DNA from: Squalus acanthias
Lineage: Eukaryota
Direction: 5' to 3'
Length of the DNA stretch: 64,000 nucleotides
Assembly: GCA_030390025.1 (NCBI GenBank)
Contig: JASTWF010000033.1
Span: 1,986,001-2,050,000, forward strand
Of this stretch, positions 4,386-60,379 are shown one piece after another (position 1 is the first letter of the stretch; the number at the start of each line of letters is the position of its first letter). The position numbers were made by a program, and so were the translations under genes. The notes beneath the pieces were generated by a model. That model had not been told where the DNA came from. It did no database searches and saw only the letters and a program-made list of their open reading frames with translations.

Positions 4386-5417
4386 TGTAAGTGTTTTTTG
4401 ATCCTAGCACAATTGCTAGATGGACGGTTCGAATCGCCCCCGCCTTACGATAGTTCTATATCCGGGAATTATTATTTAGAGTGTAAATGAAATAAGTCAC
4501 GGACAGGAATGCTCAGTGAAAAATCAAACTTATATTTATTTGGTCTAACATACACTGGCTAAAACGTGCACTACTAAACGAAATCACTGTCTCTGTGCAG
4601 AATAAAATCCAGGTTACAAACAATATACATACAGTACAAAACTGAGGACTATGACAAGCAGCAATTCCCTTGTTGCTACGGTGGACTCTAATTCCACCCC
4701 TAACAACGAATTACTCAGTCGCATAAGCCCCTTTGCCTGGCTGAACCAAACAAAGCTCCCACCCCGGAATAGCCCAAAAGCTTCACGTCTGAGAAACTCT
4801 GAGCCCTCTGGTTACCGGCTTGGGACACTCGAGACCATGCTTACCCCCACACACAGTCCGTCTCGATCGCTCCGCTTAGCTGCTTCTTCCTCTGGTACTT
4901 ATTGTTAGGTCGATCTTGTTGGGGCGAGAGCGAGACAGAGAGAGAGAGAGATGGTGGGAAAGGATCTATCTTTATTGGAGTCTTGCTACCCCTATCTTTC
5001 CCGCCAATCTTTAAAATCCTTTTGTTTCTAAGCACTCCAGTGCTTAATCAGTAATGGGACATCATCAGACCCATGTGTACTCCGTGTTTGTACTAATGGC
5101 CCTAAGTCTGAGACACAATTCGGTCTTTGTGTTGGGAAAAATTGGCTCCTCTCCGGCTGGCTAGGCCAGTGGGTTCATTGTTCTGCTTAATTTCTGAGAT
5201 GGAGGTGAGAAGTGCTTTTGCATATTCTGGATGACTGACAGTTCTTTCGTCACAGCCAACTGCCATGCATTCTCTGGAGTTTTAACAAACCACTTTTTCA
5301 CATATTTACACAGGTTGATCCCATCACAGGGAAAATATCCTCAGAAAAATCCCATAATATCCACAAAATATTCTCGATTGAGTCCATTCTTCAAACAGAT
5401 ACTTTGCGATCTCTTCA
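4386..5417 (-). repeat. ERV-A 3' LTR (TG...CA, 1032 bp)
   Basis: Minus strand begins TGAAGAGATCG at 5417 and ends ..CACTTACA at 4386. Homologous to 15637-16667 (about 10 differences in a 130-bp stretch I compared near the left end). Confidence 0.93.
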
Positions 5418-5428
5418 GTCCCCCGTTT
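5418..5428 (-). promoter_or_regulatory. Polypurine tract of ERV-A (AAACGGGGGAC abutting the 3' LTR TG)
   Basis: Purine-rich run on the minus strand directly before the 3' LTR. It is absent next to the 5' LTR. Confidence 0.75.
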
Positions 5429-5694
5429 GATGCTTGTCTTTCCACAAAGCATCACTTGGTGAGAGAGCAAATCCAAAGTCTCCCACAAGTGAAGCTATTT
5501 CCCTGATTTTACATTTTAACCCCTGAACTGCACCCCTTACTGCGTGTCATAGTTCCTTTCTACCGAGTCAAAACATCAGCGAAACGGCTTCAGAACACAT
5601 TCAAACGGCTGGGTTCCAATTCCCACCGACAAACTTCAATTCAAAATACAGAAAATTAATAAGATCCACAGGACGTTAACAAAAGGTCACCGCG

Positions 5695-7009
5695 CACATC
5701 ACACAGTACAGCATTGACAGGTGGTAACACATTACAAAAATACAACAGCGCACATCACAAAGTACAGCATTGACAGGTGGTAACACATTACAAAAATACA
5801 ACAGCGCACATCACACAGTACAGCATTGACAGGTGGTAACACATTACAAAAATACAACAGCACACATCACACAGTACAGCATTGACAGGTGGTAACACAT
5901 TACAAAAATACAACCGCGCACATCACACAGTACAGCACTGACAGGTTGTAACACATTACAAAAATACAACCGTGCACATCACACAGTACAGCATTGACAG
6001 GTGGTAACACGTTACAAAAATACAACCACGCACATCACACAGTACAGCATTGACAGGTGGTAACACATTACAAAAATACAACAGCAGACATCACACAGTA
6101 CAGCATTGACAGGTGGTAACACATTACAAAAATACAACAGCGCACGTCGCACAATACAGCATTGACAGATGGTAACACATTACAAAAATACAACTGCACA
6201 CATCACACAGTACAGCATTGACAGGTGGTAACACATTACAAAAATACAACAGCCAACATCACACAGTACAGCATTGACAGGTGGTAACACATTACAAAAA
6301 TACAACAGCGTACATCACACAGTACATGATGTGGAGATGCCGGCGTTGGACTGGGGTGGACAAAAATGAGAAGTCGCACAACACCAGGTTATAGTCCAAC
6401 AGATTTATTTAATTTTACAAGCTTTCGGAGCTGTTCGCTCCTTCCTCAGGTAGAGTAGCAGTAGAGTAGCGATATCGGGTTCATGTCACGATACAGAACG
6501 TGAATTGACATCATGGCCGGTCTTTCCAGGTGTTTTTTTTTAAAAAAGACTAACACAAGAACCAACACAAATTGACAGGATATGCAGCCAGCAGGTGTTT
6601 TGACACGTTGGACCCCCTGGGACACATCTCATTGTCTTGGCTGTGCTCTTAGTGTGTCTTTGATGTAGGGAAAGATTTGAATAGATTTTTTCTGTGTTTA
6701 TATTGTGAATTCTGGGAGATTCTCTCACTGCTACTCTACCTGAGGAAGGAGCGAACAGCTCCGAAAGCTTGTAAAATTCAATAAATCTGTTGGACTATAA
6801 CCTGGTGTTGTGCGACTTCTCATTTTTATCACACAGTACAGCATTGACAGGTGGTAACACATTACAATAATGCAACAGCGCACATCGCACAGTACAGCAT
6901 TGACAGGTGGTAACACATTACAATAATGCAACAGCGCACATCGCACAGTACAGCATTGACAGGTGGTAACACATTACAAAAATGCAACATCCCACATCAC
7001 ACAGTACAG
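5695..7009. repeat. 56-bp tandem repeat in the ERV-A 3' UTR (~11 + ~3 copies, split by an insertion)
   Basis: Unit cacatcacacagtacagcattgacaggtggtaacacattacaaaaatacaacagcg. Period 56 (5695 to 5751). Confidence 0.95.
6327..6827. mobile_element. 501-bp non-autonomous Penelope-like insertion with 100-bp inverted repeats containing minimal hammerhead-ribozyme cores
   Basis: Inverted arms 6362-6461 and 6728-6827 (1 mismatch). Each has CTGAGGA-A-GGAGC-gaaca-GCTCC-GAAA-GCTTG. A 13-bp duplication atcacacagtaca flanks it (6314-6326 and 6828-6840). Confidence 0.7.
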
Positions 7010-7120
7010 AGTGTAAAACTATAACCAGAATACAATACACTTGCTTACAGAACCTTGGTACATTACAAGTTTTTGCAGGGAGAAACCATCATCAACATAA
7101 ATCAATGACACCTTTCCGGA

Positions 7121-8394
7121 TCAATCTAACACCCCTTGCCACCGCGCTCGGAGCATCTGGCTCCATCGCCTGCAGCTGGTGTACAACAAGTAGCTTACAA
7201 TCAACAATTGTATGATAACTAATGCATGGGAACAGATGCGGATCCAGGGAGGAATCTCGATACTCAGACCGATGTCCCACCATGGTGGCGAGACAATCCC
7301 CTTGATCTCCTCACCCACTTCTACTGTCTTTTGCTCCAAAGTGTAAAAATATTTCTGGGAGAGTTCAACGGTCTTTATTAACTCAGTGAGATGTTCTGGC
7401 AGAAAAGGAATCGTTCCAGGTCCCTATTCTCTGCCTCCCGGATCCCACACTGTCCACAACATTCAGATTATAAAGCTGTTCTTTCTCTACATTTCCATAG
7501 TCCAGTTCATAAAATATCCTGAAACATCGCTTTTAACAGAGCTTCATAAAGCTTCTCCGTCTTCCTTGGACACCACACAGGACTTCAGTCAGGTTCAGGG
7601 TCACGGATGCCACGGCGTAGAGCACGTTCTGAAACAACACTTTGTCAGTCGGGATTAACACCAACCCATTCCCTGGACCCCTGGTGGTGGTGGGACACCC
7701 ATCTACAGCCGACTGTACCGTCGGGGCTCTGGGCGGGGGCTTCCTGGTGTATGAGATGAGCTCTGTGGCGTTGATGGTATTCGGGGGTTTTGGGATCACA
7801 CAGGAGTCCACACTCCGATCCCAACCGATCCCACCCCCGGTGTCCTGCTAAATGCCATCGACACACCCGCTGGGCAGATCTTTTCCGACCCCCACATACA
7901 CACATAAAGCGCTTCCTCGGATTCCCACCACTTTTCCCAACACACATTCACTCCTCCCTGAGAACCCGTGATCGTCCGGTACGTGTCATTACTTAGTCTT
8001 TCCCAGTCAGCTGTCTGGTCCCCTGTATCCACGCTCAGTTTCCTGAGCCACCACCACCTTCCCAGTGGAATGTGCCCCTACAGCTAAGGCACACCCATTT
8101 ACCCTCTGTTACCCTAACCCGGGAGGTAGTAACCCCTATTCTCCGGCATGGGATGGATGCTTCACCATGGATGAACTTGTCATGGCTGGAATACCGGGTG
8201 GAATTCGACCCCAGCCATCCAGGCCATCTTCCCTCGTGGAGATAGACGCTCGCCCCATCCTTTGAGCCACCTCCAGTGGTCACGGTCGGTCCGTCTCCGC
8301 CGGTGCAGCCGAAGATAACCGATTCCTCGGTGTCGCCCCTGTGACTCGCGCTGGCTTCAATCCTGACGCTCAGGACTACCATGGCTGACTTCAT
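7121..8394 (-). pseudogene. env: ERV-A env (signal peptide, Ig-like domain, Pro/Thr-rich linker, degenerate furin site, large internal deletion, TM anchor), frameshifted
   Basis: ATG at 8394 (MKSAMVVLSV..) follows a splice acceptor ttttcag at 8413. VRVTEGKWVCLSC..W..EEALYVC; GLVLIPTDKVLFQNV; GRQRIGTWND; TM WIRICSHALVIIQLLIVSYLLY. Collinear with the ERV-B env. Confidence 0.85.
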
Positions 8395-8619
8395 CTTGTT
8401 CTTAGGCGTTCCCTGAAAAGACACAGAATGCAACGTTGTCCTTGGGTGATGCCTCACCTTTCCAGACGCAGCTACACACGATTACATTTGGTATCCACAA
8501 CATACATGTAAATCCAAACTATACAGACAAGCTAAGGCAACAGACAGGAGAGAAAGAGGTTATGTACAGCGCCACCCGTCTCCGGGTGGCCACACTAGGT
8601 CTACTCGACCCTGGGCCTC

Positions 8620-9936
8620 TTACGACTCCGGCTTCCTTCGTTCAACGGTGTGTAAGGAGACGTCCACGGCACCCTCGGCACTCCTGGCACTCCTCTTCAC
8701 TCCTGCCCCCACAGGCGGCACGACCGGTCCCTCTGTGGGCTCCTCACAGTCCCAGATTATGGGCTGGAGACCCACACCTGTAGCGCAGCACACCACTCCC
8801 TGCTGTTTCCTCCTCTTATCAGCTCTTTCCCCAGGGTTGAAAAGCTTGCACTGATTGATATGGAACCACTTAGTGCGTCGAGGCATTTTAATCGCATATA
8901 CCATCGGACTTGCAATATCCACGATACTGTACTGTCCCATGTATAGCGGTTCAAAAGTCCCTACCCTGGAGAAGTTTCTAACCATTACTTGATCTCCGAC
9001 CTTCCACTCGTGGTGCCTCTGAGGCTCAAGCAATAAGCGATTTCTACGATGTTGCTTCCCCATGTTACTGGCAGCCTGCCAATGGACCTGTCTGAGATGC
9101 TCAAACAAATTCTTAACAAACCTGTCCCGGTTCATCTCTCTCAACTGACTTTCCGTGAGAACCGGTGCCAGTACATGGCTGGGCGTTCTCATGACCCTGC
9201 CAGTCACGAGCTCATGCGGGGAATGCCCTGTGCTTCTAGACGGGCTGGCTCGGACCCCCATCAGAACTAACGGCAAGACCTCTGCCCATTTTCTAGGCGA
9301 GTCTCCTGTCTCCCACCATAACCTTTCCTTGATGGTCCTATTCATCCGCTCCACAATCCCCGATGACTGCGGGTTGTGTGCGACGTGCCATTTACCCTCT
9401 ACACCAGTCTGCACCTGACATCTTCAGAGTCGCCTGCATGGCTGCCCCTGTGAAGTGACTCCCCTGATCGGACTCCACATACCGTGTCAGCCCCCTCCTC
9501 GAGAACACTTCTCTCACTAGAATCTTTGCGGTCCACAAAGCTGTGGCTGTTCGGCATGGGAAGGCTTCTACCCATTTAGTGAACACATCCACCAGGAGCA
9601 GGCAGTACTTGTAACCCCTCTGTCTGGTGGGCAGCGGTCCGAAATAATCGACCTGTATGGACTGCCATGGTCCCTCCACTCTCCTAGTGTGTCCCATGGA
9701 TACCTTCCTTTTTTGGGGGTCAAGGTTGTTTGCAGCACACACCAAGCAATCCGCGCAGAAGTCGCGGACGTCCTCCCTCAGTTGCAGCCACCACCTGCCT
9801 GTTCCACCCGTTCCCAGAAGGTCTCCGGCCCGGGCTGCCCCGCTCCTGGACCCTCGTGGGCCAAATGAAGGAATTCTCTCCGGTGCTGCTGCGGAACTGC
9901 CCACTGTTCCCCTCTGAAAACCATCCCTTCCTTTAG
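8620..9936 (-). pseudogene. pol: ERV-A integrase (zinc-binding CxxC, DDE core, GPY/F-like C-terminus), frameshifted
   Basis: WW..DFCADCLVC; WQSIQVDYFGPLP; VESDQGSHF; NPQSSGIVERMNRTIKE; EPLYMGQYSIV. Confidence 0.95.
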
Positions 9937-11351
9937 AGTCATAGAGTTATACAGCACAGAAAGAGGCCCTTCGGCCCATCGTGTCCGCGCCGGCCATCAA
10001 GCCCTGTCTATTCTAATCCCATTTTACAGCACTTGGTCCGTAGCCTTGTATGCTATGGCGTTTCAAGTGCTCATCTAAATGCTTCTTTAATGTTGTGAAG
10101 GTTCCTGCCTGTACCCCCCTTTCAGGCAGTGAGTTCCAGATTCCAGCCACCCTCTGGGTGAAAAAGTTTATCCTCAAAGCCCCTCTAAACCTCCTGCCCC
10201 TTCCCTTGAAACTATGCCCCCTGGTTATTGACCCCTCTACTAAGGGAAAACGTTCCTTTCTATCTACCCTATCTATGCCCCTCATAATTGTGTACACCTC
10301 AATCAGGTCCCCGCTCAGCCTTCTCTGCTCTAATGAAAACAACCCCAGCCTGTCCAGTCTCTCTTCATAGCTGAAGTGCTCCAGCCCAGGTAACATTCTG
10401 GTGAATCTCCTCTGCAGCCTCTCCAATGAACTCACATCCTTCCTATAGTGTGGCGACCAGAACTGCACACAGTATTCCAGCTGTGGCCTAACTACCGTTT
10501 TGTACAGCTCCATCATAACCTCCCTGCTCTTATATTCTATGCCTCGGCTAATGAAGGCAAGTTTCCCATATGCCTTTTTAACCACCTTATCATCCTGTCC
10601 TGCTGCCTTCCGGGATCTATGTGCATGCTCACCAAGGTACCTCTGATCCTCTGTCCTTCCTCGGGTCCTACCATTCATTGTGTATTCCCTTGCCTTGTTA
10701 GTCTTCCCAAAATGCATCACCTCACACTTTTCAGGGTTAAATTCCATTTGCCACTGTTCTGCTCATCTAACAAACCCCTCTATATCGTCCTGTAGCCGGA
10801 GGCTTCCGTCCTCACTATTTACCATCCCACCAATTTTCGTGTCATCTGCAAACTTACTGATCATACCTCCTACATTCATATCTAAATCATTAATGTACAC
10901 TACAAACAGCAAAGGAACCAGCATTGGACACAGGCTTCCAGTCACAAAAACAACCTTCGAACATCACCCTGTGCCTCCTGCCACTAAGCCAATTTTGGAT
11001 CAAAGGTGCCAAGTTGCACTGGATCCCATGGGCTTTTACCTTCTTGACCAGTCTCCCATGCGGGACTTTGTCAAAAGCCTTACTGAAGTCCATGTAGACT
11101 ACATCAACTGCACTACCCTCATCCATACACCTAGTCACCCCCTCTAAAAATTCAATCAAATTGGTCAGACATGATCTCCCCCTGACAAAGCCATGATGAT
11201 TATCCTTGATTAATCCTTGACTCTCCAAGTGGAGACTATTTCTGTCCCTCAGAATTTTTTCCAATAATTTCCCTACCACTGATGTTATGCTCACTGGCCT
11301 GTAAGTCCCTGGTTTATCCCTACTACCCTTCTTGAATAATGGTACTACGTA
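9937..11351 (-). mobile_element. 5'-truncated CR1 inserted into ERV-A pol between RNase H and integrase, 5-bp TSD
   Basis: RT/C-terminal CR1 ORFs at 10013-11294. TTTAG is duplicated at 9932-9936 and 11352-11356. Removing the insert restores pol (..AGISLKEGMVFRG..). Confidence 0.92.
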
Positions 11352-13905
11352 TTTAGCGAGATACCTGCCACTCCGTATGGACGCTCTACCTTATCTCCCT
11401 TAGCCAGCGTCTCCAGAACAGACTTTAGGACGGGATCCCGTGCCTGGACAATCTTTAGGTCCGGGGCCAATGCTACCCCTGCACTCCCTTAGGCCCCACC
11501 TCTGTCTCTAATCGCTACTACCTGACTCGACCCATATGGATCCCAAAACGTGCCCGTTCGAGCACCCTCTTTGGTCATCACGTTGGCCTGCTGATTGCCC
11601 TCCGCACGGGGTTCCGCCTTTGAATGGGCCTTAACTTTGTGGATATAGAAATCCTCCTGGGTTCCTATACTTGTTATGATCTGTTGCAACAATGGCTTTG
11701 TTGCTCGGGGTTTCCCGTCTGCAGATGTGAACCCGCGACAAGACCAAATGGCTAAATATTCTGCACTCGAATTGCAAGTGAACATGCTGTCCGAGCAAAT
11801 AGTATAGGGCGTAGGGTACACTTCGGGGTGAGTAACCACATACACCACCGCCGACAGTTCAGCGTGCTGGGCGCTCATGGTGCTCAGGAGTTTAATGGCC
11901 TTGGCAATGCCTGCCTTTGGGTCAAAAATCCCGCATCCAGTGAGTCGCTCCCCTGCCACCACTGTACTGGACCCGTCTACATGGATCCCAGCCCGAAACC
12001 CTATGTCTACGTCCCATACCCCTTCAACAGAACATTTGTGGGCCACCCCTGGGTAGATCAAATTTGCGGGGAGCTTAGGCTCACAGAGGCCTTTCACACT
12101 CAAATTCGTCTGAGAGAGCAATAAAGTCCAGCGAGCAATGCGTGCACTGCTCACCGTGACGTCCTTTATCCTCCCTTCCAGAAGCATCTGAGTGGGCGTA
12201 TGATGGGTTACGAGAGTTAACGGGGACGCCCCCGTGAAGATTTGTGATCTCCTCACTGCCCAATGTGTGGCAAGCAGGTGCCTCTCACAATTGGAGTACC
12301 CCCTCTCTACATCTGTGAGGATTCTTGATGAGTATACCACAGGCCTCAGCTTGCCATGCCACTCCTGGAGCAGCACTGTGCTGAAACTGTCCCCGGTGGC
12401 AGCTACCTCCAAAATGAACTCCTTTCCCCCATCAATCGCTCCTAAAGCTGGTGCGGAATGCAGATCTCTCTACAGACGACTAAAAGCTGCCATGCAGTCC
12501 TTATCCCACTCCCTTGTGAAGGAGCCGGAGTAGAGGAGCTGCCGTAGCGGCATAGTACTCTATGAAATCCCTGCAATGCCCTGTGAGTCCCAGGAAGGAT
12601 CTTACCTCCGTAACCGTGGTCAGGGCAGGTAGCTCCTGTACCGCCTTCCTTTTCGCCTCATCGATGGCCCTCTCCCCAGCACGTATGGTCAGCCTGAGGA
12701 ATTTTACGTCCTGCTGGCCGATCTGTGCTTTCTTGGGATTAACCTTGAACCCAGCTTCTTTTAACAGACTCAGCAGCTCAGCCAGCAGGGGGCCATGCTC
12801 CTCCCCCTCGTTCGAGAACAAAAGCAGGTCGTCCACGTACTGTACAAGCTGCTGCGGTCTGCTGAACCCTTTTAAACAGTTGGCCATATATTGGTGGAAA
12901 ATCGAAGGACTGTTATGAAACCCTTGGGGGAGGCAGGTCCATGTGTACTGCTGACCCTTGAAAGTGAATGCGAATTTATACTGGTCCTCCCTTTTGAGAG
13001 GGATAGACCAGAATCTGTTCGAAATGTTCAGCACCGTGAATGTTTTTGCGGATGCCGGGATACTCCCGATCAGGTCGGCTGCGGCTGCGATGGTGGGGAC
13101 ACAGGCTGGGGTGTTCTTTAAGAACCCGATAGTCCACAGTGGCTCTCCACGAATTGTCCAGTTTCCTAACCGGCCAAATCGGAGAGTTCACATGGGTCGC
13201 TATGGGTCTCAACACACCCTGCTCAACCAGTGATCCCAATGCCATCTCTAAATCCGCCTCTGCCTCTCTGGGGAAGTTGTACTGTTTCTGTGGTCGGGCC
13301 ATGGGGTCTCCTTCTACTCTGACCTCCACCCCTATTACCCTCCCACAGTCGTGCTTGTGTGTAGCGAATGCCGTGAGGTTGGCTCGCACATCCGCTCTGT
13401 ACTCCGCCGGGGTAGAAGTGACCAAAGGTTCAAGGTCATAACTACCCTTGGGCTTCACCGTACACACGGTTCCCTTGCCTTGCTTCCCTAGTATAACTAC
13501 CACCTCCTTCTCCTTTCCCATGCACACTGCGCCCCAAAGACAGTGATTCCGGAAATCCACCAATATCTTGTGGGCCAGTATCAAGTCTGCCCCCAAAATG
13601 CCTATTCCCTCCCGCTCCCACCGCATCAGCACACATTTCCACTCCATACAGAGTGTACCCAGATCGATGGCTAGCGGGATGGAGAAAGGCCCAGCCTGTT
13701 CGTTCCCGGTGAACCCTACTAAGTTATATGGGACCCCACTCGACAGAGGTGCTGTAGTTGGGTTATCCGCATAGACAATGGTGCTTGAAGCTCCAGTGTC
13801 CAGCAGATAGGTCCCTTGCACCTTCTCCACCCCCAGCTTCACGCACGGTCTCTTCCAAGCATCATAACTTAGTGGGCACAGGTAAACGGGCTGAGAAGCC
13901 CCTAG
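11352..13905 (-). pseudogene. pol: ERV-A pol: aspartic protease, RT, degenerate RNase H (tether) and a second catalytic-type RNase H, frameshifted
   Basis: YLLDTGASSTIV; NSPIWPVRK..WRATVDYR; LPQGFHNSP..QYVDDLLLF; tether LEVAAT..RPVVYSSR..ERHLLA..THHTP; RH IHVDGSS..SAQHAEL..CSDS..KVKAH..GNQQAN. Confidence 0.95.
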
Positions 13906-13908
13906 TCA
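13902..13908 (-). promoter_or_regulatory. Putative gag-pol stop-codon readthrough signal UGA-CUAG
   Basis: Minus strand ..GAC CCA TGA CTA GGG GCT.. The gag stop is followed in the same frame by 21 sense codons leading into the protease ORF (13842). Confidence 0.75.
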
Positions 13909-15587
13909 TGGGTCGGGATTGTTCGGGGTGGATGGGAGTTCGCTGCCCACTGCTGCATCCACCCTACCCTGCCCTACCGGAAAGACTGCGCGGAGAGCAG
14001 CAACTAATACCGCGAACGGATCAGTGCTGCTTCCTGCCACAGCTGCGGCTTTCTGCACTGGCGCTGGAGGATCCACTTTTCCGCTCCTTTTGTCAGAGAC
14101 TGGGCAGTCTTTCCTCCAGTGCCCTTTACTCCCGCACCCATAACAAACCTGCTTCTTCTCTGAGCTACTCCCTTCCTGGCGCCACTCTCTTCTAACGTTG
14201 CCTCCACTAGGCTTTAACTCGTGTACTCTGCCCTTTGGTTTGTCATCCTCACCCCTACCATTCTTAAAAGAGAGAGTTAACTGCCGGATCACACTCTCTT
14301 CTGTGGTCTGGGGATCCCTGGAATCGAACCACCCCTCTGCTTTGGCCTTGATCCTGGGCAGGCTGTTCGCCACCAGGGTCCTCAGCCAATGAGGCCTAGG
14401 ATCCCCCTCCAGCTGCACACGGTCGGGCACCCCCACATAGGCAATCCGGTCGACGGTCCAAAGCCTGTCCGCGAAAGCCTGCGGTGCCTCCCCAGCTGAT
14501 TGCAGTGTCCTTTCCACTCGGGAGAAGGGACTTTCATCACTGAGGCCCATAGCCTTTAGGATGTCATCCTTTATCCACTCTAACGTACCCTGCCCCCTCT
14601 TGCTACCCGCTGAGAGCGACTGGTACAACCTACTATCCAGGGAAAATAATAGTAATTTGTCTGTCTCAGCTTGGTTACAATTGTTGATCCCCCCCCACCT
14701 GCTCCACATCCGTAAAATGGAGAGATGGGTCCCCTTTGCTGGTCAGTTTGGTCAGGTTAGAGACCATTGCCCGCAGCTGGGGGGTCGTATACGGGACCAC
14801 GAAGTCACTCTGCAGTGGTCCTTGCTCTTGACCGTCTACGGGCGCACCGTATTTCTGCTGCCGGACAGGGCACATGGGTCCTGGTCCCGGCACTTCGGGC
14901 GGTGGTCGAGCGTCCTCCTCTACCTCACAGTCCTCCTTATCTCCCTCCTGCTCTTCCTCATCTACCCGGGCCATTCCCGGAGCTACAAAGCAGACCATCC
15001 CTTTGGCCTTAGATACAGCATCGGTCAAATTCCGGATCTGCTCCTGGCCAGGACCATGATTACCCGTATCAAACCCTCTAGTGCTGGGGACTCTGTATGC
15101 CACCTGAATATCCTTCAACTGCTCTCCCAGCACCTTTACCTCACTCGACAAGCGAGCGTTCTCCTCCCTAACCACCCTCTCGTTCCCCTTTGCCTCAGTT
15201 ACCTGGCATCGCAGGAACTCCTTATGGTTACGGAAGGTTTCCTCCAGGCTTATTCTTCTCTGCTTCTCATCCCTTACCTCCGTGCATAACCAGCTCCCTA
15301 CTACAGCCCTTGCGTCTGTCTGTGCCATTGGACTCCCTGAGCTCTGCCTCTAACGTAGCAACCTGCTTATCTAGCAGTTCGACTTGTCTTTGTAGACAGA
15401 TGAGCCATATCGCCTTTTCAATGCTGCGCCTATGCTCCTTGCCCTCCGTCCATTCTGCCGCTGTGTCCACCGGACGCTCAGACTGGAACAAGCCTAGCAC
15501 CCACTTCTTAGTGACGTTAACCTTCTTAAACACATATGAAGAAATCCTTTCCTCCATTTGGGATCTTTTGCCAGAAGCACTGTCCAT
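13906..15587 (-). pseudogene. gag: ERV-A gag (N-terminal coiled coil, capsid-like region, single CCHC zinc knuckle), frameshifted
   Basis: First ATG after the PBS at 15587 (MDSASGKRSQMEE..). Heptad-rich LQRQVELLDKQVATLEAEL; QSAGEAPQAFADRL; CYGCGSKGHWRKDC. Confidence 0.9.
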
Positions 15588-15613
15588 GACTGATTTACTC
15601 TCCTTTAACCCAG

Positions 15614-15631
15614 GTCCTGCCGCGGTAGCCA
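15614..15631 (-). promoter_or_regulatory. Primer binding site complementary to tRNA-Arg(TCG)
   Basis: Minus strand TGGCTACCGCGGCAGGAC, 5 nt after the 5' LTR. The plus strand gtcctgccgcggtagcca matches the vertebrate tRNA-Arg-TCG 3' end GTCCTGCCGCGGTCG+CCA (recalled) at 17/18. Confidence 0.8.
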
Positions 15632-15636
15632 AGAGA

Positions 15637-16667
15637 TTTAAGTGGTTTTTGATCCTAGCCCAGTTGCTAGATGGACGATTCGAATCGCCCCCGCCTTACG
15701 AAAGTTCTATACCCGGGAATTATTATTCAGAGTGTAAATCAAATAAGTCATGGACAGGAATGCTTCAGCGAAAAATCAAACTTATATTTATTTGGTCTAA
15801 CATACACTGGCTAAAATGTGCACTACTAAACGAAATCACTGTCTCTGTGGAGAATAAAATCCAGGTTAAAAACAACAAACATACAGTACAAACTGGGGAC
15901 TATAAAATCCAGTATTTCCCGTGTTGCTATGGTGGACTCTAATTCCACCCCTAGCAACGAATTACCCAGTCGCATAAGGCCCTTCGCCTGTCTGAAACAA
16001 TGGAAGCCCCCACCCTCGGAATAGCCCAAAAACTTCACTTCTGAGAAAAACTCTGAGCCCTCTGGTTACCGGCTTGGGACACTCTAGACCATGCTTACCC
16101 CCACACGCAGTCCATCTCGATCGCTCCACTTAGCTGCTTCTTCCTATGGTCTTAATGTTAGATCGATCTTGGTGCAGCGAGAGCGATAGAGAGAGAGAGA
16201 ATGGTGGGAAAGTATCTATCTTTATAGGAGTCTTGCTACACCTATCTTTCCCGCCAATCTTTAAAATCCTTTTGTTTCGAAACACTCCGGTGCTGAATCA
16301 TTGATGGGTCATCCTCAAACCCATGTGTACTCCGTGATTGGAACAATGGTCCTAAGTCTGGGATATATTTCGGTCTTTCTGTTGGGCAAAACTGGCTCTT
16401 CTCCGGCTGGCTAGGCCAGTGGGTTCATTGTTCTGCTTCTCTTCTCAGATGGAGGTGAGAAGTGATTTTGAATATTCAGGATGACTGACAGTTATTGTGT
16501 CACACCCAACTGCCATGTGTTCTCTGGAGTTTTAACAAACCAGTTTTTCACATACTAAGACAGGGTGATCCCATCACAGGGAAAATACCCTCAGAAAAAT
16601 CCCATAAAGTCCACAAAATATTCTCGACTGAGTCCATTCTTCAAACAGAGACTTTGCGATCTCTTCA
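15637..16667 (-). repeat. ERV-A 5' LTR (1031 bp), TATAAA at 16221-16226 and AATAAA at 15787-15792 on minus
   Basis: Direct repeat of 4386-5417. Begins TGAAGAG; the terminal CA is mutated to AA; followed by the PBS. Confidence 0.93.
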
Positions 16668-17736
16668 GATATTATGTGAATTTGGGAGGGGCTGAGGATA
16701 TTAGGAGTGGTGGGGAGGAGCTGAGGATAATAGGTGGGGTGGGGAGGAGCTGAGGATATTAGGTGCGGTGGGGAGGAGCTGAGTATATTAGGTGGGGTGG
16801 GGAGGAGCTGAGGATATGAGGAGGTGTGGGGGAGAAGCTGAGGATATTAGGTGGGGTGGGGAGGAGCTGAGGATATTAGGTGTGGTGGGGAGGAGCTGAG
16901 GATAATAGGTGGGGTGGGGAAGAGCTGAGGATATTAGGTGGGGTGGGGAGGAGCTGAGGATATTAGGTGGGGAGGAGCTGAGAATATTAGGTGGGATGGG
17001 GAGGAGCTGAGGATATTAGGTGGGGTGGGGAGGAGCTGAGGATATTAGGTGAGGTCGGGAGGAGCTGAGGATATTAGTTGGGGTGGGGAGGAGCTGAGGA
17101 TATTAGGTGGGGTGGGGAGGAGCTGAGAATATTAGTTGGGGTGGAGAGGAGATGAGTATATTAGGTGAGGTGGTGAGGAGCTGAGGATATGAGGTGGGGT
17201 GGGGAGGAGCTGAGGATATTAGGTGTGGTGGGGAGGAGCTGAGGATATTAGGAGGGGTGAGGAGGAGCTGAGGATATTAGGTGGGGTGGGGAGTAGCTGA
17301 GGATATTAGGTGGGGTGGGGAGGAGCTGAGGATATTAGCTGGGTTGGGGAGGAGCTGAGAATATCAGGTGGGGTGGGGAGGAGCTGAGGATATTAGGTGG
17401 GGTGGGGAGGAGCTGAGGATATTAGCTGGGGTGGGGAGGAGCTGAGGATATTAGTTGGGGTGGGGTGGAGCTGAGGATATTAGTTGGGGTGGGGAGGAGC
17501 TGAGGATATTAGGTGGGGTGGGGAGGAGCTGTGGATATTGGTTGGGGTGGGGAGGAGCTGAGGATATTAGGTGGGGTGGAGAGGAGCTGAGGATATTAGG
17601 TGGGGTGGGAAGGAGCTGAGGATATTAGATGGGGTGGGGAGGTGCTAAGGATATTAGATGGGGTGTGGAGGAGCTCAGGATATTAGATGGGGTGGGGAGG
17701 AGCTGAGGATATTAGATGGGGTGTGGAGGAGCTGAG
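16668..17736. repeat. 29-bp G-rich minisatellite, block 1
   Basis: Unit gaggagctgaggatattaggtggggtggg, period 29. Confidence 0.97.
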
Positions 17737-20700: not shown

Positions 20701-21424
20701 GGGAATACACAATGAATGGTAGGATCAGTGGGACCTTGATGGGCATGTACATAGATCCCTGAATGCAGCAGGGCAGTTTGACAGGTGGTTAAAAAAGCAT
20801 ATGGGATAATTGCCTTCATTAGCCGAGGCAAAGAATATAAGAGCAGCGAGGTTATGATGGAGCTGTACAAAATACTAGTTAGGCCATAGCTGGAATACGG
20901 TGTGCAGTTATGGACGCCACACTATAGGAAGGATGTGATTGCATTGGAGTGGGTGCAGATGAGATTCTCCACGATGTTACCTGGGCTGCAGCGCTTCAGC
21001 TATGAAGAGAGACTGGACAGGTTGGGGTTGTTTTCTATAGAGCAGAGAAGGCTGAGGGGGGACCTGATTGAGGTGAACAAAATTATGAGGGGCATAGATA
21101 CGGTAGATAGAAACGAACATTTCCCCTTAGTAGAGGGGTCAATAACAAGGTGGCATAGATTCAAGGTAAGGGGCAGGAAGTTTAGAGGGGATTTGAAGAA
21201 AAATTTTACACCCAGAGGGTGGTTGAAATCTGGAACTCACTGCCTGAAAGGGTGGTAGAGGCAGGAACCCTCACAACATTCAAGAATCATTTAGATGAGC
21301 ACTTCAAACGCCAAAGCATACAAGGCTACGGAACAAGAGCTGGAAAATGGGATTAGGATAGACAGGGCTTGATGGCCGGCGTGGACACGACGGGCTGAAG
21401 GCCTGTTTCTGTGCTGTATACCTA
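17737..21424 (+). mobile_element. Near full-length CR1 LINE (ORF1 SGNH/GDSL esterase domain, ORF2 endonuclease plus RT), frameshifted, inserted in the minisatellite
   Basis: ORF1 AIVIGDSIVR..VVVHIGTND..DGLHLN. ORF2 YLNARSL..VAITDTWL, GDFSFP, SDHN, YMDFSKAFDKV, FADDTK. Confidence 0.95.
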
Positions 21425-22374
21425 TATTAGTTGGGGTGGGGAGGGAGCTAAGGACATTAGGAGGTTTGGTGAAGAGCTGAGTATATTTGGTGAGCTGGGG
21501 AGAAGCTGAGGATATTATGTGGGTTGGGAAGGAGCTGTGGATATCAGGTGGGGTGGGGTGGAGCTGAGTATGTAAGTTGGGGTGGGGTTGAGCTGAGGAT
21601 ATTAGGTGTGGTGGGGAGGAGCTCAGGATATTGGATGAATTCTGGAGGAGCTGTGGATTACAGGTGAGGGTCGGCAGAAATTTTTGATGTTAGGTTGGGT
21701 GGGGAGGTGCTGAGGATATTACATGGGGTGGGGAGGAGCTGAGGATATTAGGTGGGGTGGGGAGGAGCTGAGGATATTAGGTGGGGTGGGGAGGATCTGA
21801 GTATATTAGGTGGGATGGGGAGGAGCGGAGGATATTAGGTGGGGTGGGGAGGAGCTGAGGATATTAGTTGGGGTGGGGAGAAGCTGAGGATATTAGTTGG
21901 GGTGGGGAGGAGCTGAGGATATTAGGTGGGGTGGGAAGGTTCTGAGGATATTAGGTGGGGAGGAAAGGAGCTGAGAATATTAGGTGGGGTGGTGAGGAGC
22001 TGAGGATATTAGTGGGGTGGGGGGAGCTGAGGATATTAGGTGGGGTGGGGAGGAGCTGAGGATATTAAGTGGGGTGGGGAGGAGCTGAGGATATTAGGTG
22101 GGCTGGTGCGGAGCTGAGGATATTAGTTGGTGTGGGAAGAGCTGAGGATATGAGGAGGGGTGGAAAGGAGCTGAGGATATTAGGTGGGGTGGGGAGGAGC
22201 TGAGGATATTAGGTGGGTTGGGGAGTTGCTGAGGATATTAGGTGGGTTGGAGCGGAGCGGAGGATATTAGCTGGGTTGGGAAGAGATGAGGATATTAGGT
22301 GGGGTGGGGAGGAGCTGAGGATATTAGGTGGGGTGTTGAGACCTGAGGATATTAGGTGGGGTGGGGAGGAGCTG
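21425..22374. repeat. 29-bp G-rich minisatellite, block 2
   Basis: Same unit as 16668-17736. Confidence 0.97.
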
Positions 22375-25300
22375 TTGTCGGGAGCGACGAGACCGGAGGT
22401 GCTGTGAGGTGCTGTGAGTATTTGAACTCACTTTCGCGGGCTTTTCTTCACAGACTGTTGTCGGGAGCGACGAGACCGGAGGTGCTGTGAGTATTTGAAC
22501 TCACTTTCGCGGGCTTTTCTTCACAGGCTGTTGTCGGGAGCGACGAGACCGGAGGTGCTGTGAGGTGCCGTGAGTATTTGAACTCACTTTCGCGGGCTTT
22601 TCTTCACAGACTGTTGTCGGGAGCGACGAGACCGGAGGTGCTGTGAGGTGCTTGAGTATTTGAACTCACTTTCGCGGGCTTTTCTTCACAGGCTGTTGTC
22701 GGGAGCGACGAGACCGGAGGTGCTGTGAGGTGATGTGAGTATTTGAACTCACTTTCGCGGGCTTTTCTTCACAGGCTGTTGTCGGGAGCGACGAGACCGG
22801 AGGGGCTGTGAGGTGCTGTGAGAATTTGAACTCACTTTCGCGGGCTTTTCTTCACAGGCTGTTGTCGGGAGCGACGAGACCGGAGGCGCTGTGAGGTGCT
22901 GTGAGTATTTTAACTCACTTTCGCGGGCTTTTCTTCACAGGCTGTTGTCGGGAGCGACGAGACCGGAGGTGCTGTGAGGTTCTGTGAGTATTTGAACTCA
23001 CTTTCGCGGGCTTTTCTTCACAGGCTGTTGTCGGGAGCGACGAGACCGGAGGTGCTGTGAGGTGCTGTGAGTATTTGAACTCACTTTCGCGGGCTTTTCT
23101 TCACAGGCTGTTGTCGGGAGCGACGAGACCGGAGGCGCTGTGAGGTGCTGTGAGTATTTGAACTCACTTTCGCGGGCTTTTCTTCACAGACTGTTGTCGG
23201 GAGCGACGAGACCGGAGGCGCTGTGAGGTGCTGTGAGTATTTGAACTCACTTTCGCGGGCTTTTCTTCACAGGCTGTTGTCGGGAGCGACGAGACCGGAG
23301 GCGCTGTGAGGTGCTGTGAGTATTTGAACTCACTTTCGCGGGCTTTTCTTCACAGGCTGTTGTCGGGAGCGACGAGACCGGAGGCGCTGTGAGGTGCTGT
23401 GAGTATTTGAACTCACTTTCGCGGGCTTTTCTTCACAGACTGTTGTCGGGAGCGACGAGACCGGAGTAGCTGTGAGGTGCTGTGAGTATTTGAACTCACT
23501 TTTGCGGGCTTTTCTTCACAGGCTGTTGTCGGGAGCGACGAGACCGGAGGTGCTGTGAGGTGCTGTGAGTATTTGAACTCACTTTCGCGGGCTTTTCTTC
23601 ACAGGCTGTTGTCGGGAGCGACGAGACCGGAGGCGCTGTGAGGTGCTGTGAGTATTTGAACTCACTTTCGCGGGCTTTTCTTCACAGACTGTTGTCGGGA
23701 CCGACGATACCGGAGGTGCTGTGAGGTGCTGTGAGTATTTGAACTCACTTTCGCGGGCTTTTCTTCACAGGCCGTTGTCGGGAGCGACGAGACCGGAGGC
23801 GCTGTGAGGTGCTGTGAGTATTTGAACTCACTTTCTCGGGCTTTTCTTCACAGACTGTTGTCGGGAGCGACGAGACCGGAGGTGCTGTGAGGTGCTGTGA
23901 GTATTTGAACTCACTTTCGCGGGCTTTTCTTCACAGGCTGTTGAGGGGAGCGACGAGACCGGAGGTGCTGTGATGTGCTGTGAGTATTTGAACTCACTTT
24001 CGCGGGCTTTTCTTCACAGGCTGTTGTCGGGACCGACGAGACCGGAGGTGCTGTGAGGCCCTGTGAGTATTTGAACTCACTTTCGTGGGCTTTTCTTCAC
24101 AGGCTGTTGTCGGGAGCGACGAGACCGGAGGTGCTGTGAGTATTTGAACTCACATTCGCGGGCTTTTCTTCACAGGCTGTTGTCGGGAGCGACGAGACCG
24201 GAGGCGCTGTGAGGTGCTGTGAGTATTTGAACTCACTTTCGCGGGCTTTTCTTCACAGGCTGTTGTCGGGAGCGACGAGACCGGAGGTGCTGTGAGGTGC
24301 TGTGAGTATTTGAACTCACTTTCGCGGGCTTTTCTTCACAGGCTGTTGTCGGGAGTGACGAGACCGGAGGTGCTGTGAGGTGCTGTGAGTATTTGAACTC
24401 ACTTTCGCGGGCTTTTCTTCACAGGCTGTTGTCGGGAGCGACGAGACAGGAGGCGCTGTGAGGTGCTGTGAGTATTTGAACTCACTTTCGCGGGCTTTTC
24501 TTCACAGGCTGTTGTCGGGACCGACGAGACCGGAGGTGCTGTGAGGCGCTGTGAGTATTTGAACTCACTTTCGCGGGCTTTTCTTCACAGGCTGTTGTCG
24601 GGAGCGACGAGACCGGAGGCGCTGTGAGGTGCTGTGAGTATTTGAACTCACTTTCGCGGGCTTTTCTTCACAGACTGTTGTCGGGAGCGACGAGACCGGA
24701 GGTGCTGTGAGGTGCTGTGAGTATTTGAACTCAATTTCGCGGGCTTTTCTTCACAGGCTGTTGTCGGGAGCGACGAGACCGGAGGTGCTGTGAGGCGCTG
24801 TGAGTATTTGAACTCACTTTCGCGGGCTTTTCTTCACAGGCTGTTGTCGGGAGCGACGAGACCGGAGGTGCTGTGAGGTGCTGTGAGTATTTGAACTCAC
24901 TTTCGCGGGCTTTTCTTCACAGGCTGTTGTCGGGAGCGACGAGACCGGAGGCGCTGTGAGGTGCTGTGAGTATTTGAACTCACTTTCGCGGGCTTTTCTT
25001 CACAGGCTGCTGTCGGGAGCGACGAGACCGGAGGTGCTGTGAGGCGCTCTGAGTATTTGAACTCACTTTCGCGGGCTTTTCTTCACAGGCTGTTGTCGGG
25101 AGCGACGAGACCGGAGGTGCTGTGAGTATTTGAACTCACTTTCGCGGGCTTTTCTTCACAGGCTGTTGTCGGGAGCGACGAGACCGGAGGTGCTGTGAGG
25201 TGATGTGAGTATTTGAACTCACTTTCGCGGGCTTTTCTTCACAGGCTGTTGTCGGGAGCGACGAGACCGGAGGTGCTGCGAGGTGCTGTGAGAATTTGAA

Positions 25301-28300
25301 CTCACTTTCGCGGGCTTTTCTTCACAGGCTGTTGTCGGGAGCGACGAGACCGGAGGCGCTGTGAGGTGCTGTGAGTATTTTAACTCACTTTCGCGGGCTT
25401 TTCTTCACAGGCTGTTGTCGGGAGCGACGAGACCGGAGGCGCTGTGAGGTGCTGTGAGTATTTGAACTCACTTTCGCGGGCTTTTCTTCACAGGCTGTTG
25501 TCGGGAGCGACGAGACCGGAGGTGCTGTGAGGTGCTGTGAGTATTTGAACTCACTTTCGCGGGCTTTTCTTCACAGGCTGTTGTCGGGAGCGACGAGACC
25601 GGAGGCGCTGTGAGGTGCTGTGAGTATTTGAACTCACTTTCGCGGGCTTTTCTTCACAGACTGTTGTCGGGAGCGACGAGACCGGAGGAGCTGTGAGGTG
25701 CTGTGAGTATTTGAACTCACTTTCGCGGGCTTTTCTTCACAGGCTGTTGTCGGGAGCGACGAGACCGGAGGTGCTGTGAGGTGCTGTGAGTATTTGAACT
25801 CACTTTCGCGGGCTTTTCTTCACAGGCTGTTGTCGGGAGCGACGAGACCGGAGGCGCTGTGAGGTGCTGTGAGTATTTGAACTCACTTTCGCGGGCTTTT
25901 CTTCACAGGCTGTTGTCGGGAGCGACGAGACCGGAGGCGCTGTGAGGTGCTGTGAGTATTTGAACTCACTTTCGCGGGCTTTTCTTCACAGACTGTTGTC
26001 GGGAGCGACGAGACCGGAGGAGCTGTGAGGTGCTGTGAGTATTTGAACTCACTTTCGCGGGCTTTTCTTCACAGGCTGTTGTCGGGAGCGACGAGACCGG
26101 AGGTGCTGTGAGGTGCTGTGAGTATTTGAACTCACTTTCGCGGGCTTTTCTTCACAGGCTGTTGTCGGGAGCGACGAGACCGGAGGCGCTGTGAGGTGCT
26201 GTGAGTATTTGAACTCACTTTCGCGGGCTTTTCTTCACAGACTGTTGTCGGGACCGACGAGACCGGAGGTGCTGTGAGGTGCTGTGAGTATTTGAACTCA
26301 CTTTCGCGGGCTTTTCTTCACAGGCCGTTGTCGGGAGCGACGAGACCGGAGGCGCTGTGAGGTGCTGTGAGTATTTGAACTCACTTTCTCGGGCTTTTCT
26401 TCACAGACTGTTGTCGGGAGCGACGAGACCGGAGGTGCTGTGAGGTGCTGTGAGTATTTGAACTCACTTTTGCGGGCTTTTCTTCACAGACTGTTGTCGG
26501 GACTGACGAGACCGGAGGCGCTGTGAGGTGCTGTGAGTATTTGAACTCACTTTCGCGGGCTTTTCTTCACAGGCTGTTGAGGGGAGCGACGAGACCGGAG
26601 GTGCTGTGATGTGCTGTGAGTATTTGAACTCACTTTCGCGGGCTTTTCTTCACAGGCTGTTGTCGGGACCGACGAGACCGGAGGTGCTGTGAGGCCCTGT
26701 GAGTATTTGAACTCACTTTCGTGGGCTTTTCTTCACAGGCTGTTGTCGGGAGCGACGAGACCGGAGGTGCTGTGAGTATTTGAACTCACATTCGCGGGCT
26801 TTTCTTCACAGGCTGTTGTCGGGAGCGACGAGACCGGAGGCGCTGTGAGGTGCTGTGAGTATTTGAACTCACTTTCGCGGGCTTTTCTTCACAGGCTGTT
26901 GTCGGGAGCGACGAGACCGGAGGTGCTGTGAGGTGCTGTGAGTATTTGAACTCACTTTCGCGGGCTTTTCTTCACAGGCTGTTGTCGGGAGCGACGAGAC
27001 CGGAGGTGCTGTGAGGTGCTGTGAGTATTTGAACTCACTTTCGCGGGCTTTTCTTCACAGGCTGTTGTCGGGAGCGACGAGACAGGAGGCGCTGTGAGGT
27101 GCTGTGAGTATTTGAACTCACTTTCGCGGGCTTTTCTTCACAGGCTGTTGTCGGGACCGACGAGACCGGAGGTGCTGTGAGGCGCTGTGAGTATTTGAAC
27201 TCACTTTCGCGGGCTTTTCTTCACAGGCTGTTGTCGGGAGCGACGAGACCGGAGGCGCTGTGAGGTGCTGTGAGTATTTGAACTCACTTTCGCGGGCTTT
27301 TCTTCACAGACTGTTGTCGGGAGCGACGAGACCGGAGGTGCTGTGAGGTGCTGTGAGTATTTGAACTCACTTTCGCGGGCTTTTCTTCACAGGCTGTTGT
27401 CGGGAGCGACGAGACAGGAGGCGCTGTGAGGTGCTGTGAGTATTTGAAATCACTTTCGCGGGCTTTTCTTCACAGACTGTTGTCGGGACCGACGAGACCG
27501 GAGGTGCTGTGCGTATTTGAACTCACTTTCGCGGGCTTTTCTTCACAGGCTGTTGTCGGGAGCGACGAGACCGGAGGCGCTGTGAGGTGCTGTGAGTATT
27601 TGAACTCACTTTCGCGGGCTTTTCTTCACAGGCTGCTGTCGGGAGCGACGAGACCGGAGGTGCTGTGAGGCGCTCTGAGTATTTGAACTCACTTTCGCGG
27701 GCTTTTCTTCACAGGCTGTTGTCGGGAGCGACGAGACCGGAGGTGCTGTGAGTATTTGAACTCACATTCGCGGGCTTTTCTTCACAGGCTGTTGTCGGGA
27801 GCGACGAGACCGGAGGCGCTGTGAGGTGCTGTGAGTATTTGAACTCACTTTCGCGGGCTTTTCTTCACAGACTGTTGTCGGGACCGACGAGACCGGAGGC
27901 GCTGTGAGGTGCTGTGAGTATTTGAACTCACTTTCGCGGGCTTTTCTTCACAGACTGTTGTCGGGAGCGACGAGACCGAAGGTGCTGTGAGGTGCTGTGA
28001 GTATTTGAACTCACTTTCGCGGGCTTTTCTTCACAGGCTGTTGTCGGGAGCGACGAGACCGGAGGCGCTGTGAGGTGCTGTGAGTATTTGAAATCACTTT
28101 CGCGGGCTTTTCTTCACAGACTGTTGTCGGGACCGACGAGACCGGAGGTGCTGTGAGGTGCTGTGAGTATTTGAACTCACTTTCGCGGGCTTTTCTTCAC
28201 AGGCTGTTGTCGGGAGCGACGAGACCGGAGGCGCTGTGAGGTGCTGTGAGTATTTGAACTCACTTTCGCGGGCTTTTCTTCACAGACTGTTGTCGGGACC

Positions 28301-31300: not shown

Positions 31301-32944
31301 CACTTTCGCGGGCTTTTCTTCACAGGCTGTTGTCGGGAGCGACGAGACCGGAGGTGCTGTGAGGTGCTGTGAGTATTTGAACTCACTTTCGCGGGCTTTT
31401 CTTCACAGACTGTTGTCGGGAGCGACGAGACCGAGGTGCTGTGAGGTGCTGTGAGTATTTGAACTCACTTTCGCGGGCTTTTCTTCACAGGCTGTTGTCG
31501 GGAGCGACGAGACCGGAGGCGCTGTGAGGTGCTGTGAGTATTTGAACTCACTTTCGCGGGCTTTTCTTCACAGGCTGTTGTCGGGAGCGACGAGACCGGA
31601 GGTGCTGTGAGGTGCTGTGAGTATTTGAACTCACTTTCGCGGGCTTTTCTTCACAGACTGTTGTCGGGAGCGACGAGACCGGAGGTGCTGTGAGGTGCTG
31701 TGAGTATTTGAACTCACTTTCGCGGGCTTTTCTTCACAGGCTGTTGTCGGGAGCGACGAGACCGGAGGCGCTGTGAGGTGCTGTGAGTATTTGAACTCAC
31801 TTTCGCGGGCTTTTCTTCACAGACTGTTGTCGGGACCGACGAGACCGGAGGTGCTGTGAGGTGCTGTGTGTATTTGAACTCACATTCGCGGGCTTTTCTT
31901 CACAGGCTGTTGTCGGGACCGACGAGACCGGAGGTGCTGTGAGGTGCTGTGAGTATTTGAACTCACTTTCGCGGGCTTTTCTTCACAGACTGTTGTCGGG
32001 AGCGACGAGACCGGAGGTGCTGTGAGTATTTGAACTCACATTCGCGGGCTTTTCTTCACAGAATGTTGTCGGGAGCGACGAGACCGGAGGTGCTGTGAGG
32101 TGCTGTGTGTATTTGAACTCACTTTCGCGAGCTTTTCTTCACAGACTGTTGTCGGGACCGACGAGACCGGAGGCGCTGTGAGGTGCTGTGAGTATTTGAA
32201 CTCACTTTCGCGGGCTTTTCTTCACAGACTGTTGTCGGGACCGACGAGACCGGCGGTGCTGTGAGGTGCTGTGAGTATTTGAACTCACTTTCGCGGGCTT
32301 TTCTTCACAGGCTGTTGTCGGGAATTTCTTCACAGAATGTTGTCGGGAGCGACGAGACCGGAGGTGCTGTGAGGTGCTGTGAGTATTTGAACTCACTTTC
32401 GCGGGCTTTTCTTCACAGACTGTTGTCGGGACCGACGAGACCGGAGGTGCTGTGAGGTGCTGTGAGTATTTGAACTCACTTTCGCGGGCTTTTCTTCACA
32501 GGCTGTTGTCGGGAGCGACGAGACCGGAGGTGCTGTGAGGTGCTGTGAGTATTTGAACTCACTTTCGCGGGCTTTTCTTCACAGACTGTTGTCGGGACCG
32601 ACGAGACCGGAGGAGCTGTGAGGTGCTGTGAGTATTTGAACTCACTTTCGCGGGCTTTTCTTCACAGACTGTTGTCGGGAGCGACGAGACCGGAGGTGCT
32701 GTGAGGTGCTGTGAGTATTTGAACTCACTTTCGCGGGCTTTTCTTCACAGACTGTTGTCGGGACCGACGAGACCGGAGGCGCTGTGAGGTGCTGTGAGTA
32801 TTTGAACTCACTTTCGCGGGTTTTTCTTCACAGACTGTTGTCGGGACCGACGAGACCGGAGGTGCTGTGAGGTGCTGTGAGTATTTGAACTCACTTTCGC
32901 GGTCTTTTCTTCACAGACTGTTGTCGGGAGCGACGAGACCGGAA
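22372..32944 (+). repeat. 83-bp CpG-rich tandem array (~10.6 kb, roughly 125-130 units, some 73-bp variants)
   Basis: Unit ctgttgtcgggagcgacgagaccggaggtgctgtgaggtgctgtgagtatttgaactcactttcgcgggcttttcttcacagg. Period 83 (22528 to 22611). Very homogeneous. Confidence 0.98.
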
Positions 32945-32988
32945 GCGGACCAGGTGGGAAGCACCCAGGTGAACGGCATTTAAGGAGG

Positions 32989-48332: not shown

Positions 48333-48532
48333 NNNNNNNNNNNNNNNNNNNNNNNNNNNNNNNNNNNNNNNNNNNNNNNNNNNNNNNNNNNNNNNNNNNN
48401 NNNNNNNNNNNNNNNNNNNNNNNNNNNNNNNNNNNNNNNNNNNNNNNNNNNNNNNNNNNNNNNNNNNNNNNNNNNNNNNNNNNNNNNNNNNNNNNNNNNN
48501 NNNNNNNNNNNNNNNNNNNNNNNNNNNNNNNN
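48333..48532. other. Assembly gap (200 N)
   Basis: Run of N of round length, typical of a scaffolding gap of unknown size. Confidence 0.99.
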
Positions 48533-60066: not shown

Positions 60067-60379
60067 TCCAAACACTCCCGGTACTTAAACTATCTATGGC
60101 CTCCATGCAGTTCTCATTTCCCAGAGAAATTACATTGTCTAAACTTGGACAAATTGTAGGCAGCATTGCCTTTAAACTTACACTGCGTATACGCCTTCCA
60201 GGTGCAAAAGACCGATGCCTCTCGCACTACCTGTATATGCATGTTTTATTATAAAAGGAAAAATAATCAAACCAACTGTTTTAAAAATACAAAAGTTCCA
60301 AACTTAGTTACACATACTCATAACTAACAACAACTACAAAAACACACATGGTAAAATGGAACGGCGTCATTCTGGCCGT

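Follow-up and report, generated by a model that had tools for sequence, protein, structure and literature searches.

Retroviruses related to snakehead retrovirus (SnRV) form a clade that was named Huo and spans all major vertebrate lineages (Xu et al., 2018, PMC6001957); an SnRV-like clade is also described elsewhere (PMC4977317). Since CmiERV lineage I, a group of endogenous retroviruses (ERVs) of the elephant shark, was published as clustering with SnRV (Han, 2015, PMC4422223), this type of Pol is already known from cartilaginous fish, namely a chimaera. Lokiretroviruses (Loki) encode an envelope protein (Env) similar to the Pfam family PF00523, with an RxKR-type cleavage site (PMC7947760). 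According to the same source, the Env proteins of Loki show no significant similarity to those of canonical retroviruses, and independent acquisition of env by both groups was favoured later (PMC9040795). F-like fusion proteins are modular and carry added modules (PMC11468914), and immunoglobulin (Ig)-like receptor-binding domains are known on Env proteins of the gamma type (10.1101/2024.03.17.585361); further context is found in PMC10435555, PMC13709493, PMC12583693, PMC11521997, and 10.1101/2023.10.26.564294. Here, a provirus of the shark Squalus acanthias is described, which occupies positions 4386-16667, minus strand, of a 64-kb stretch (contig JASTWF010000033.1, 1,986,001 to 2,050,000, assembly GCA_030390025.1), denoted as the window. 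In the literature, which was covered in part, neither a chondrichthyan Loki nor an SnRV-clade Env described as F-like or Ig-bearing was found.

We consider it quite likely that the provirus derives from a simple retrovirus and is now a dead copy in the germ line; its reverse transcriptase (RT) would belong to an SnRV-like basal grade of the canonical retroviruses, and its ancestor likely used an F-type fusogen with a probable Ig-like head. A first-pass annotation of the window had called the element a lokiretrovirus, an identity that its RT (13270-12490, minus strand) contradicts. In the RT alignment supplementing the Loki paper, for which 24 Loki rows are described (PMC7947760), the motif xPFG is present in 23/23 inspected Loki rows; the provirus reads LPQGFHNSP and QYVDD and tracks the SnRV row block by block. 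For the trees, a profile search was performed with a natural Pol relative of 1145 aa, and the best 150 of 137,507 matches were used. Anchors, i.e. SnRV (P0028), Loki-Lro (P0015), three further Loki types, and WEHV1, were labelled by alignment match or database name. A first careful maximum-likelihood RT tree held 35 rows (34 of 151 proteins plus the unbroken RT core of the provirus) and a second one 41 rows, among them five RTs each from foamy and class II viruses; a quick tree held 66 rows. All were built without Odin, ERV-L/S, FLERV, and CmiERV rows.

All three RT trees place the provirus inside the canonical-retrovirus clade (support 100/98 in the careful trees), which in the 41-row tree comprises foamy, class I, and class II viruses together with SnRV (100/98). 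The Loki RTs form a separate clade in both careful trees (100/99). The approximately unbiased (AU) test rejects a grouping of the provirus with Loki (p=0.018) as well as one of its eight-row local group with Loki (p=0.026). Two unnamed relatives are the nearest RT rows, followed by bullfrog, Xenopus, and coelacanth proteins labelled 'NYNRIN-like', and SnRV lies in the same basal polytomy. Across the RT trees, the provirus stands apart from the 8-28 Ty3/gypsy-type rows and outside class I (gamma/epsilon); in possessing an env, it is also unlike Odin. An RT inside Metaviridae or a standard retroviral class had been named beforehand as the result that would speak against Loki, and this is largely what is seen: the RT sits in a basal, SnRV-like canonical grade, yet in neither class I nor the foamy clade, and not in Metaviridae.

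The remaining domains agree with the RT in lying outside Loki. A tree of the tether unites the provirus (88/98) with rows from SnRV, frog, turtle, and coelacanth and keeps it outside the Loki clades, and in the integrase (IN) and RNase H trees it falls outside Loki clades supported at 100/99. SnRV is the best-scoring named virus among the matches listed, with an RT core identity of 41%. The combination of tether and RNase H, which the first-pass annotation had described as a mark of retroviruses and Loki alike, is indeed present; being common to all retroviruses, it is not diagnostic of Loki. As a separate observation, the frog and coelacanth proteins P0002, P0003, P0005, and P0011, labelled 'NYNRIN-like' or 'Gypsy integrase-like', are Pol proteins of the basal retroviral grade, and some of them join the Loki IN in the IN tree (93/85).

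The env remnant (8413-7124, minus strand) is spread over several frames and comprises an N-terminal arm, an F2-like part, a cleavage site, and then a membrane-proximal helix and anchor. The plan of the whole family was drawn from the natural homologues P0176, P0177, and P0178 and from the env of another provirus fragment in the window, a relative of the first (60380-62340, minus strand); in that env, the F1 core is kept and the F2-like part is absent. Behind the signal peptide come an arm of ~220 residues and an F2-like part, which opens with CP..GPGNGLVL; an R-x-x-R site separates the latter from a long F1-like part, which is followed by an anchor. Among named species, a sawshark (83% over a fragment) and a skate (57%) have the closest env relatives, which supports an elasmobranch host. 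P0178, the sawshark gene model, is an env-family fragment joined to a cadherin-related gene, which is probably a gene-model artefact. From cleavage site to anchor, the provirus env has only ~200 nt vs ~1210 nt in the second env of the window, located at 60.4-62.3 kb (352 aa in SnRV Env); judged by this spacing, ~1 kb encoding the fusion peptide, HR1, and the F1 core is therefore missing near position 7420.

Several lines of comparison point to an F-like Env. A 155-aa piece of the second env (60910-61374) yields Fusion_gly as its sole Pfam match at E values up to 10 (E=0.047, profile positions 250-354; E=0.063 for a trimmed piece), and the provirus's own env pieces give no Fusion_gly match. By eye, six motifs match the Loki Env in the same order: GP.SGIVL, G.S.VNA, DL..G.IP, a strand run IP..IY.L...N.G, two cysteines ahead of LCG, and WLV/YCV. 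The resemblance to Loki Env that had been proposed from the first reading gains support from these motifs together with the weak Fusion_gly match on the related env, and the Envs of the shark provirus and of Loki are likely members of one paramyxovirus-F-like family. The CP..GP..G motif at the F2 start aligns to the SnRV Env ~100 residues before its cleavage site, with 5/1000 shuffles scoring as good for each of two queries. Sequence searches of the PDB with Env pieces returned no fusion proteins, and a search with a profile of the foamy Env remained without significant matches. The SnRV Env itself (L001:6131-9535) seems F-like in layout, with an Ig-like N-terminus and no CKS17-type motif seen.

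A gamma-type transmembrane subunit (TM) had been reported as lacking, which holds true: no CKS17-type (L.N...LD) motif occurs in the three frames of the provirus env, from which the TM core is deleted, the lone C-x6-CC match contains a stop, and the second env has an F1-like core in place of a gamma-type TM. The step from this absence to a Loki identity fails, because the SnRV Env shows an F-like layout without the gamma motif and the foamy Env is structurally F-like as well (PMC11468914). An F-type Env is probably no hallmark of Loki, since a provirus of the canonical clade likely carries the same plan, as SnRV seems to do.

The N-terminal arm probably carries an Ig-like domain (7850-8110, minus strand), as suggested by natural homologues and by the folding alignment that included the window piece. 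Pfam Ig_3 matches P0176, a homologue of 45-66% identity, with E=0.0027, and Atlas features of the homologue yielded no more than borderline hits (0.89-0.90), several Ig families (0.88-0.89) among them; for the F2 piece they gave nothing. A model from three sequences (predicted local distance difference test, pLDDT, of 60) folds as a seven-strand sandwich, whose listed Foldseek matches in the PDB are, by title, antibody/nanobody-containing entries (best E=8e-4). A single-sequence fold of a 326-aa Env homologue reached a pLDDT of 32. At the N-terminus of the SnRV Env, Ig matches are weak (perlecan Ig, E=0.078; V-set, E=0.12).

A number of results weigh against an SnRV-like virus with an F-type, Ig-headed Env. 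The basal grade is a polytomy, and the provirus is sister to SnRV in no RT tree; the IN and RNase H trees do not resolve the base, and by BLAST score Loki is a better match than SnRV for both the tether and the IN. A sister relation to the foamy viruses is also not rejected by the AU test (p=0.075). On the side of the envelope, all evidence lies under curated cut-offs: neither the skate env gene model nor the SnRV Env matches Fusion_gly, the remaining 4/6 env queries (from the window and from homologues) align to SnRV Env no better than shuffles, neither of two F1 pieces beats shuffles, and the hhalign comparison of Env stays at E=0.069. The Ig model has low TM-scores of 0.3-0.4 and a middling best VIA Z of 7.0. 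In combination, the lines of Env evidence render the F-type and the Ig assignment probable without proving either.

Among the alternatives, the one that survives best is a recombinant with an SnRV-grade gag-pol and an env captured from a lokiretrovirus instead of being inherited from a common ancestor; it departs from the favoured reading solely in the history of env. Swaps of env are known in the SnRV clade, as CmiERV lineage I has a Pol of this type next to a gamma-type env (PMC4422223) and a gamma-type Env is likewise reported for SnRV-related ERVs of class III (10.1101/2021.11.23.469661), and the F1 core appears by eye nearer to Loki than to SnRV Env. On the other hand, SnRV Env has the F2 motif and the Ig-like N-terminus too, which indicates shared descent within the SnRV grade, and the env family is spread across sharks and skates, so that we regard such a capture as unlikely. 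Foamy viruses are not known to have a CCHC knuckle or an in-frame gag-pol. The provirus possesses both, the inspected foamy loci show a separate pol frame, the five foamy RTs make up a long clade of their own that excludes the provirus, and the foamy Env profile has no significant match. A basal spuma-like (foamy-related) retrovirus is therefore a rather improbable reading, despite the F-like nature of the foamy Env (PMC11468914) and the AU result given above. Least probable of all is a true lokiretrovirus, which would be the first from cartilaginous fish and would have filled a host gap, as Loki was found in 0/6 chondrichthyan genomes (Wang and Han, PMC7947760): the by-eye likeness of the Env and the higher scores of tether and IN against Loki than against SnRV are opposed by the RT motif, the RT trees, and both AU tests, by the position outside Loki in the tether, IN, and RNase H trees, and by the lack of a ~220-residue N-terminal arm in the inspected Loki Envs, so the provirus is no member of that group.

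The favoured reading, a simple retrovirus of the SnRV-like grade, suggests the following life cycle for the ancestor. Genomic RNA would have been transcribed from the 5' long terminal repeat (LTR), and ribosomes reading through the one in-frame stop of gag would have produced Gag-Pol. Reverse transcription would have been primed on a host tRNA, presumably of the Arg type, with the second RNase H removing the RNA and the first acting as a tether. Env would have been translated from a spliced message, for which the acceptor-like site ahead of the env start would have served. Cleavage at the R-x-x-R site would have yielded two subunits, one comprising Ig and F2 and the other being an F1-like fusion subunit, so that Env would have been a subclass-Ib fusogen whose attachment module is N-terminal. 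Following integration, the copy decayed, losing ~1 kb of env and gaining a LINE (long interspersed nuclear element) fragment, a tandem array, and a palindromic insert.

Combining a canonical-clade Pol with a Loki-like F-type Env, and with hints of the same in SnRV, the locus makes the origin of retroviral env testable with natural sequences. One tentative scenario, to which we give somewhat less than even weight, is that canonical retroviruses and Loki inherited an F-type Env from their common ancestor, that the SnRV grade, with the shark lineage and SnRV among its members, retained it through descent and gained a captured V-type Ig domain as an integral receptor-binding head, and that the gamma-type Env is a later replacement. 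If true, this would overthrow the view that the two groups acquired env independently (PMC9040795).

The genes and domains of the provirus follow the order LTR-primer-binding site (PBS)-gag(CCHC)-protease-RT(YVDD)-tether and RNase H-IN-env-LTR, as already recognised at first sight and now confirmed. All of the following features are on the minus strand unless stated otherwise. The gag gene (15587-13906) lies in three frames and consists of a coiled-coil-like N-terminal part, a capsid-like middle, and one CCHC knuckle (~14148-14101; Pfam zf-CCHC, E=2e-5); its N-terminus is coiled-coil by eye only and has no Pfam match. A single gag stop codon is followed in frame by the protease (13905-13582; weak Pfam RVP, E=0.011), a layout typical of readthrough. 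The RT (Pfam RVT_1, E=5e-29) is broken and misses one of its catalytic acids. In a single open frame (11492-12469), Pfam identifies RT_RNaseH (E=9e-19) and then RNase_H (E=3e-14). The former corresponds to the tether, a degenerate Ty3/gypsy-type RNase H (12466-12110) that has lost the TDAS/ExLA/TDH acids retained in Ty3/gypsy rows, and the latter to the second RNase H (11986-11561), whose catalytic motifs VDGS/HAEL/SDS are retained. The alignment thereby corroborates what had been claimed for both domains, and the second one is recognised by Pfam. The IN (9936-8830; Pfam rve, E=9e-13) is broken as well and comprises a zinc-binding part, core, and SH3-like tail. The natural 1145-aa Pol relative maps onto the provirus pol as six pieces with three internal stops, plus the LINE.

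The 5' LTR (16667-15637, 1031 bp) starts with TG, and the 3' LTR (5417-4386, 1032 bp) adjoins a LINE. The pair is 90.6% identical over 1027 aligned sites, with 42 transitions and 55 transversions (Kimura two-parameter distance 0.10). A PBS-like 18-mer is located at 15631-15614, which we take to be of the tRNA-Arg type; no tRNA genes were found within the 64-kb window. A short polypurine-tract-like run precedes the 3' LTR (5418-5430), and a splice-acceptor-like site is found at 8413, just ahead of env, in line with the spliced env that had been proposed. Between 15300 and 16667, only a single splice-donor-like motif occurs, at 16099 inside the LTR, with a matching site in the 3' LTR; that it lies within the LTR follows from gag beginning ~45 nt past the LTR end. 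The U5 ends of both LTRs are imperfect and the flanks of the provirus contain no target-site duplication, so that the earlier statement of nearly all cis signals being readable goes too far. Nor is the provirus 'complete', as it had been called: besides the absent duplication and the loss of ~1 kb of env, every gene is broken. The copy is long dead and partly deleted, is unable to encode a working enzyme or envelope, and displays no signs of function.

Two insertions that had been delimited at 6327-6827 and 9937-11351 are real. The latter is a LINE fragment inside pol with a 5-bp duplication (minus strand), over which the read depth rises more than 20-fold in 4/4 runs. The former is a palindromic insert of 501 bp with 108-bp inverted ends that are 97% identical; it presumably is a Penelope-type palindrome, and it interrupts the 56-bp tandem array that separates env from the 3' LTR (5692-7009, no strand assigned; 11.3 + 3.2 copies). 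Reads of four runs cover 30, 30, 30, and 29 of 30 bins, and the provirus family is therefore present in all of them. LINE reads dominated the joint tables, and the reads neither span the env deletion nor speak against it. The four longest non-LINE contig pieces of one run diverge by ~3-5% from the internal region, i.e. by half the LTR-LTR distance. This fits, without settling, a single old insertion with a damaged end; in view of the absent target-site duplication, the provirus could also be a recombinant of two insertions. Given an LTR divergence of 10%, any plausible rate makes the insertion at least tens of millions of years old. With either of two rates that Han (2015, PMC4422223) cites, the distance of 0.10 converts into ~23 or 230 million years, a spread that allows the age to be given only as 'old'.

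The second provirus fragment (58900-64000, minus strand) runs off the end of the window. It includes an IN tail (64000-63780) with 75% DNA identity to the first provirus, a GC-rich repeat block (62870-63570), the env described above, which has its own start and signal peptide, and then a probable LTR. Elsewhere in the window, an array of an 83-bp unit (22313-33000) reaches ~130 copies of 96-99% identity. It is flanked by a 29-bp minisatellite (21424-22374), whose unit recurs at 16684-17736 beside the 5' LTR. An assembly gap of 200 N lies at 48333-48532.

SnRV is among the known systems closest to the provirus, with which it shares the RT motifs, the basal position among canonical retroviruses, the gag stop with pol in frame behind it, and a coiled-coil-like Gag N-terminus. 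The PBS of SnRV is, we assume, of the Arg type like that of the provirus. The likeness extends to Env, with an Ig-like N-terminus, the CP..GP..G motif, the R-x-x-R site, and a long TM subunit. In contrast to SnRV, the shark Env is shorter, the env start adjoins the acceptor instead of lying in the leader upstream of gag, and neither accessory open reading frames nor an insert between RNase H and IN are visible. No close relatives of the provirus were found in the searched viral and metagenome contigs.

CmiERV lineage I, compared by eye and outside the trees, also resides in a chondrichthyan host and matches the provirus in its RT and tether motifs, but differs by a gamma-type env (CKS17-like motif and CX6CC) and another PBS (PMC4422223). 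Loki share the gag-pol-env plan, the tether and RNase H, probably an F-like Env, in which the order of motifs matches by eye, and a NYNRIN/CGIN1-like integrase neighbourhood. Some of them have an smc-like coiled-coil gene; the Gag N-terminus of the provirus looks coiled-coil by eye, and the SnRV Gag has a coiled coil too. They differ in an RT of a separate clade and in their Envs, those inspected beginning at the PGP motif directly past the signal peptide. The foamy Env, finally, resembles the shark Env in joining an F-like core with an added receptor-binding module, which is placed between the subunits in foamy viruses (PMC11468914), whereas in the shark Env it is N-terminal and probably Ig-like.

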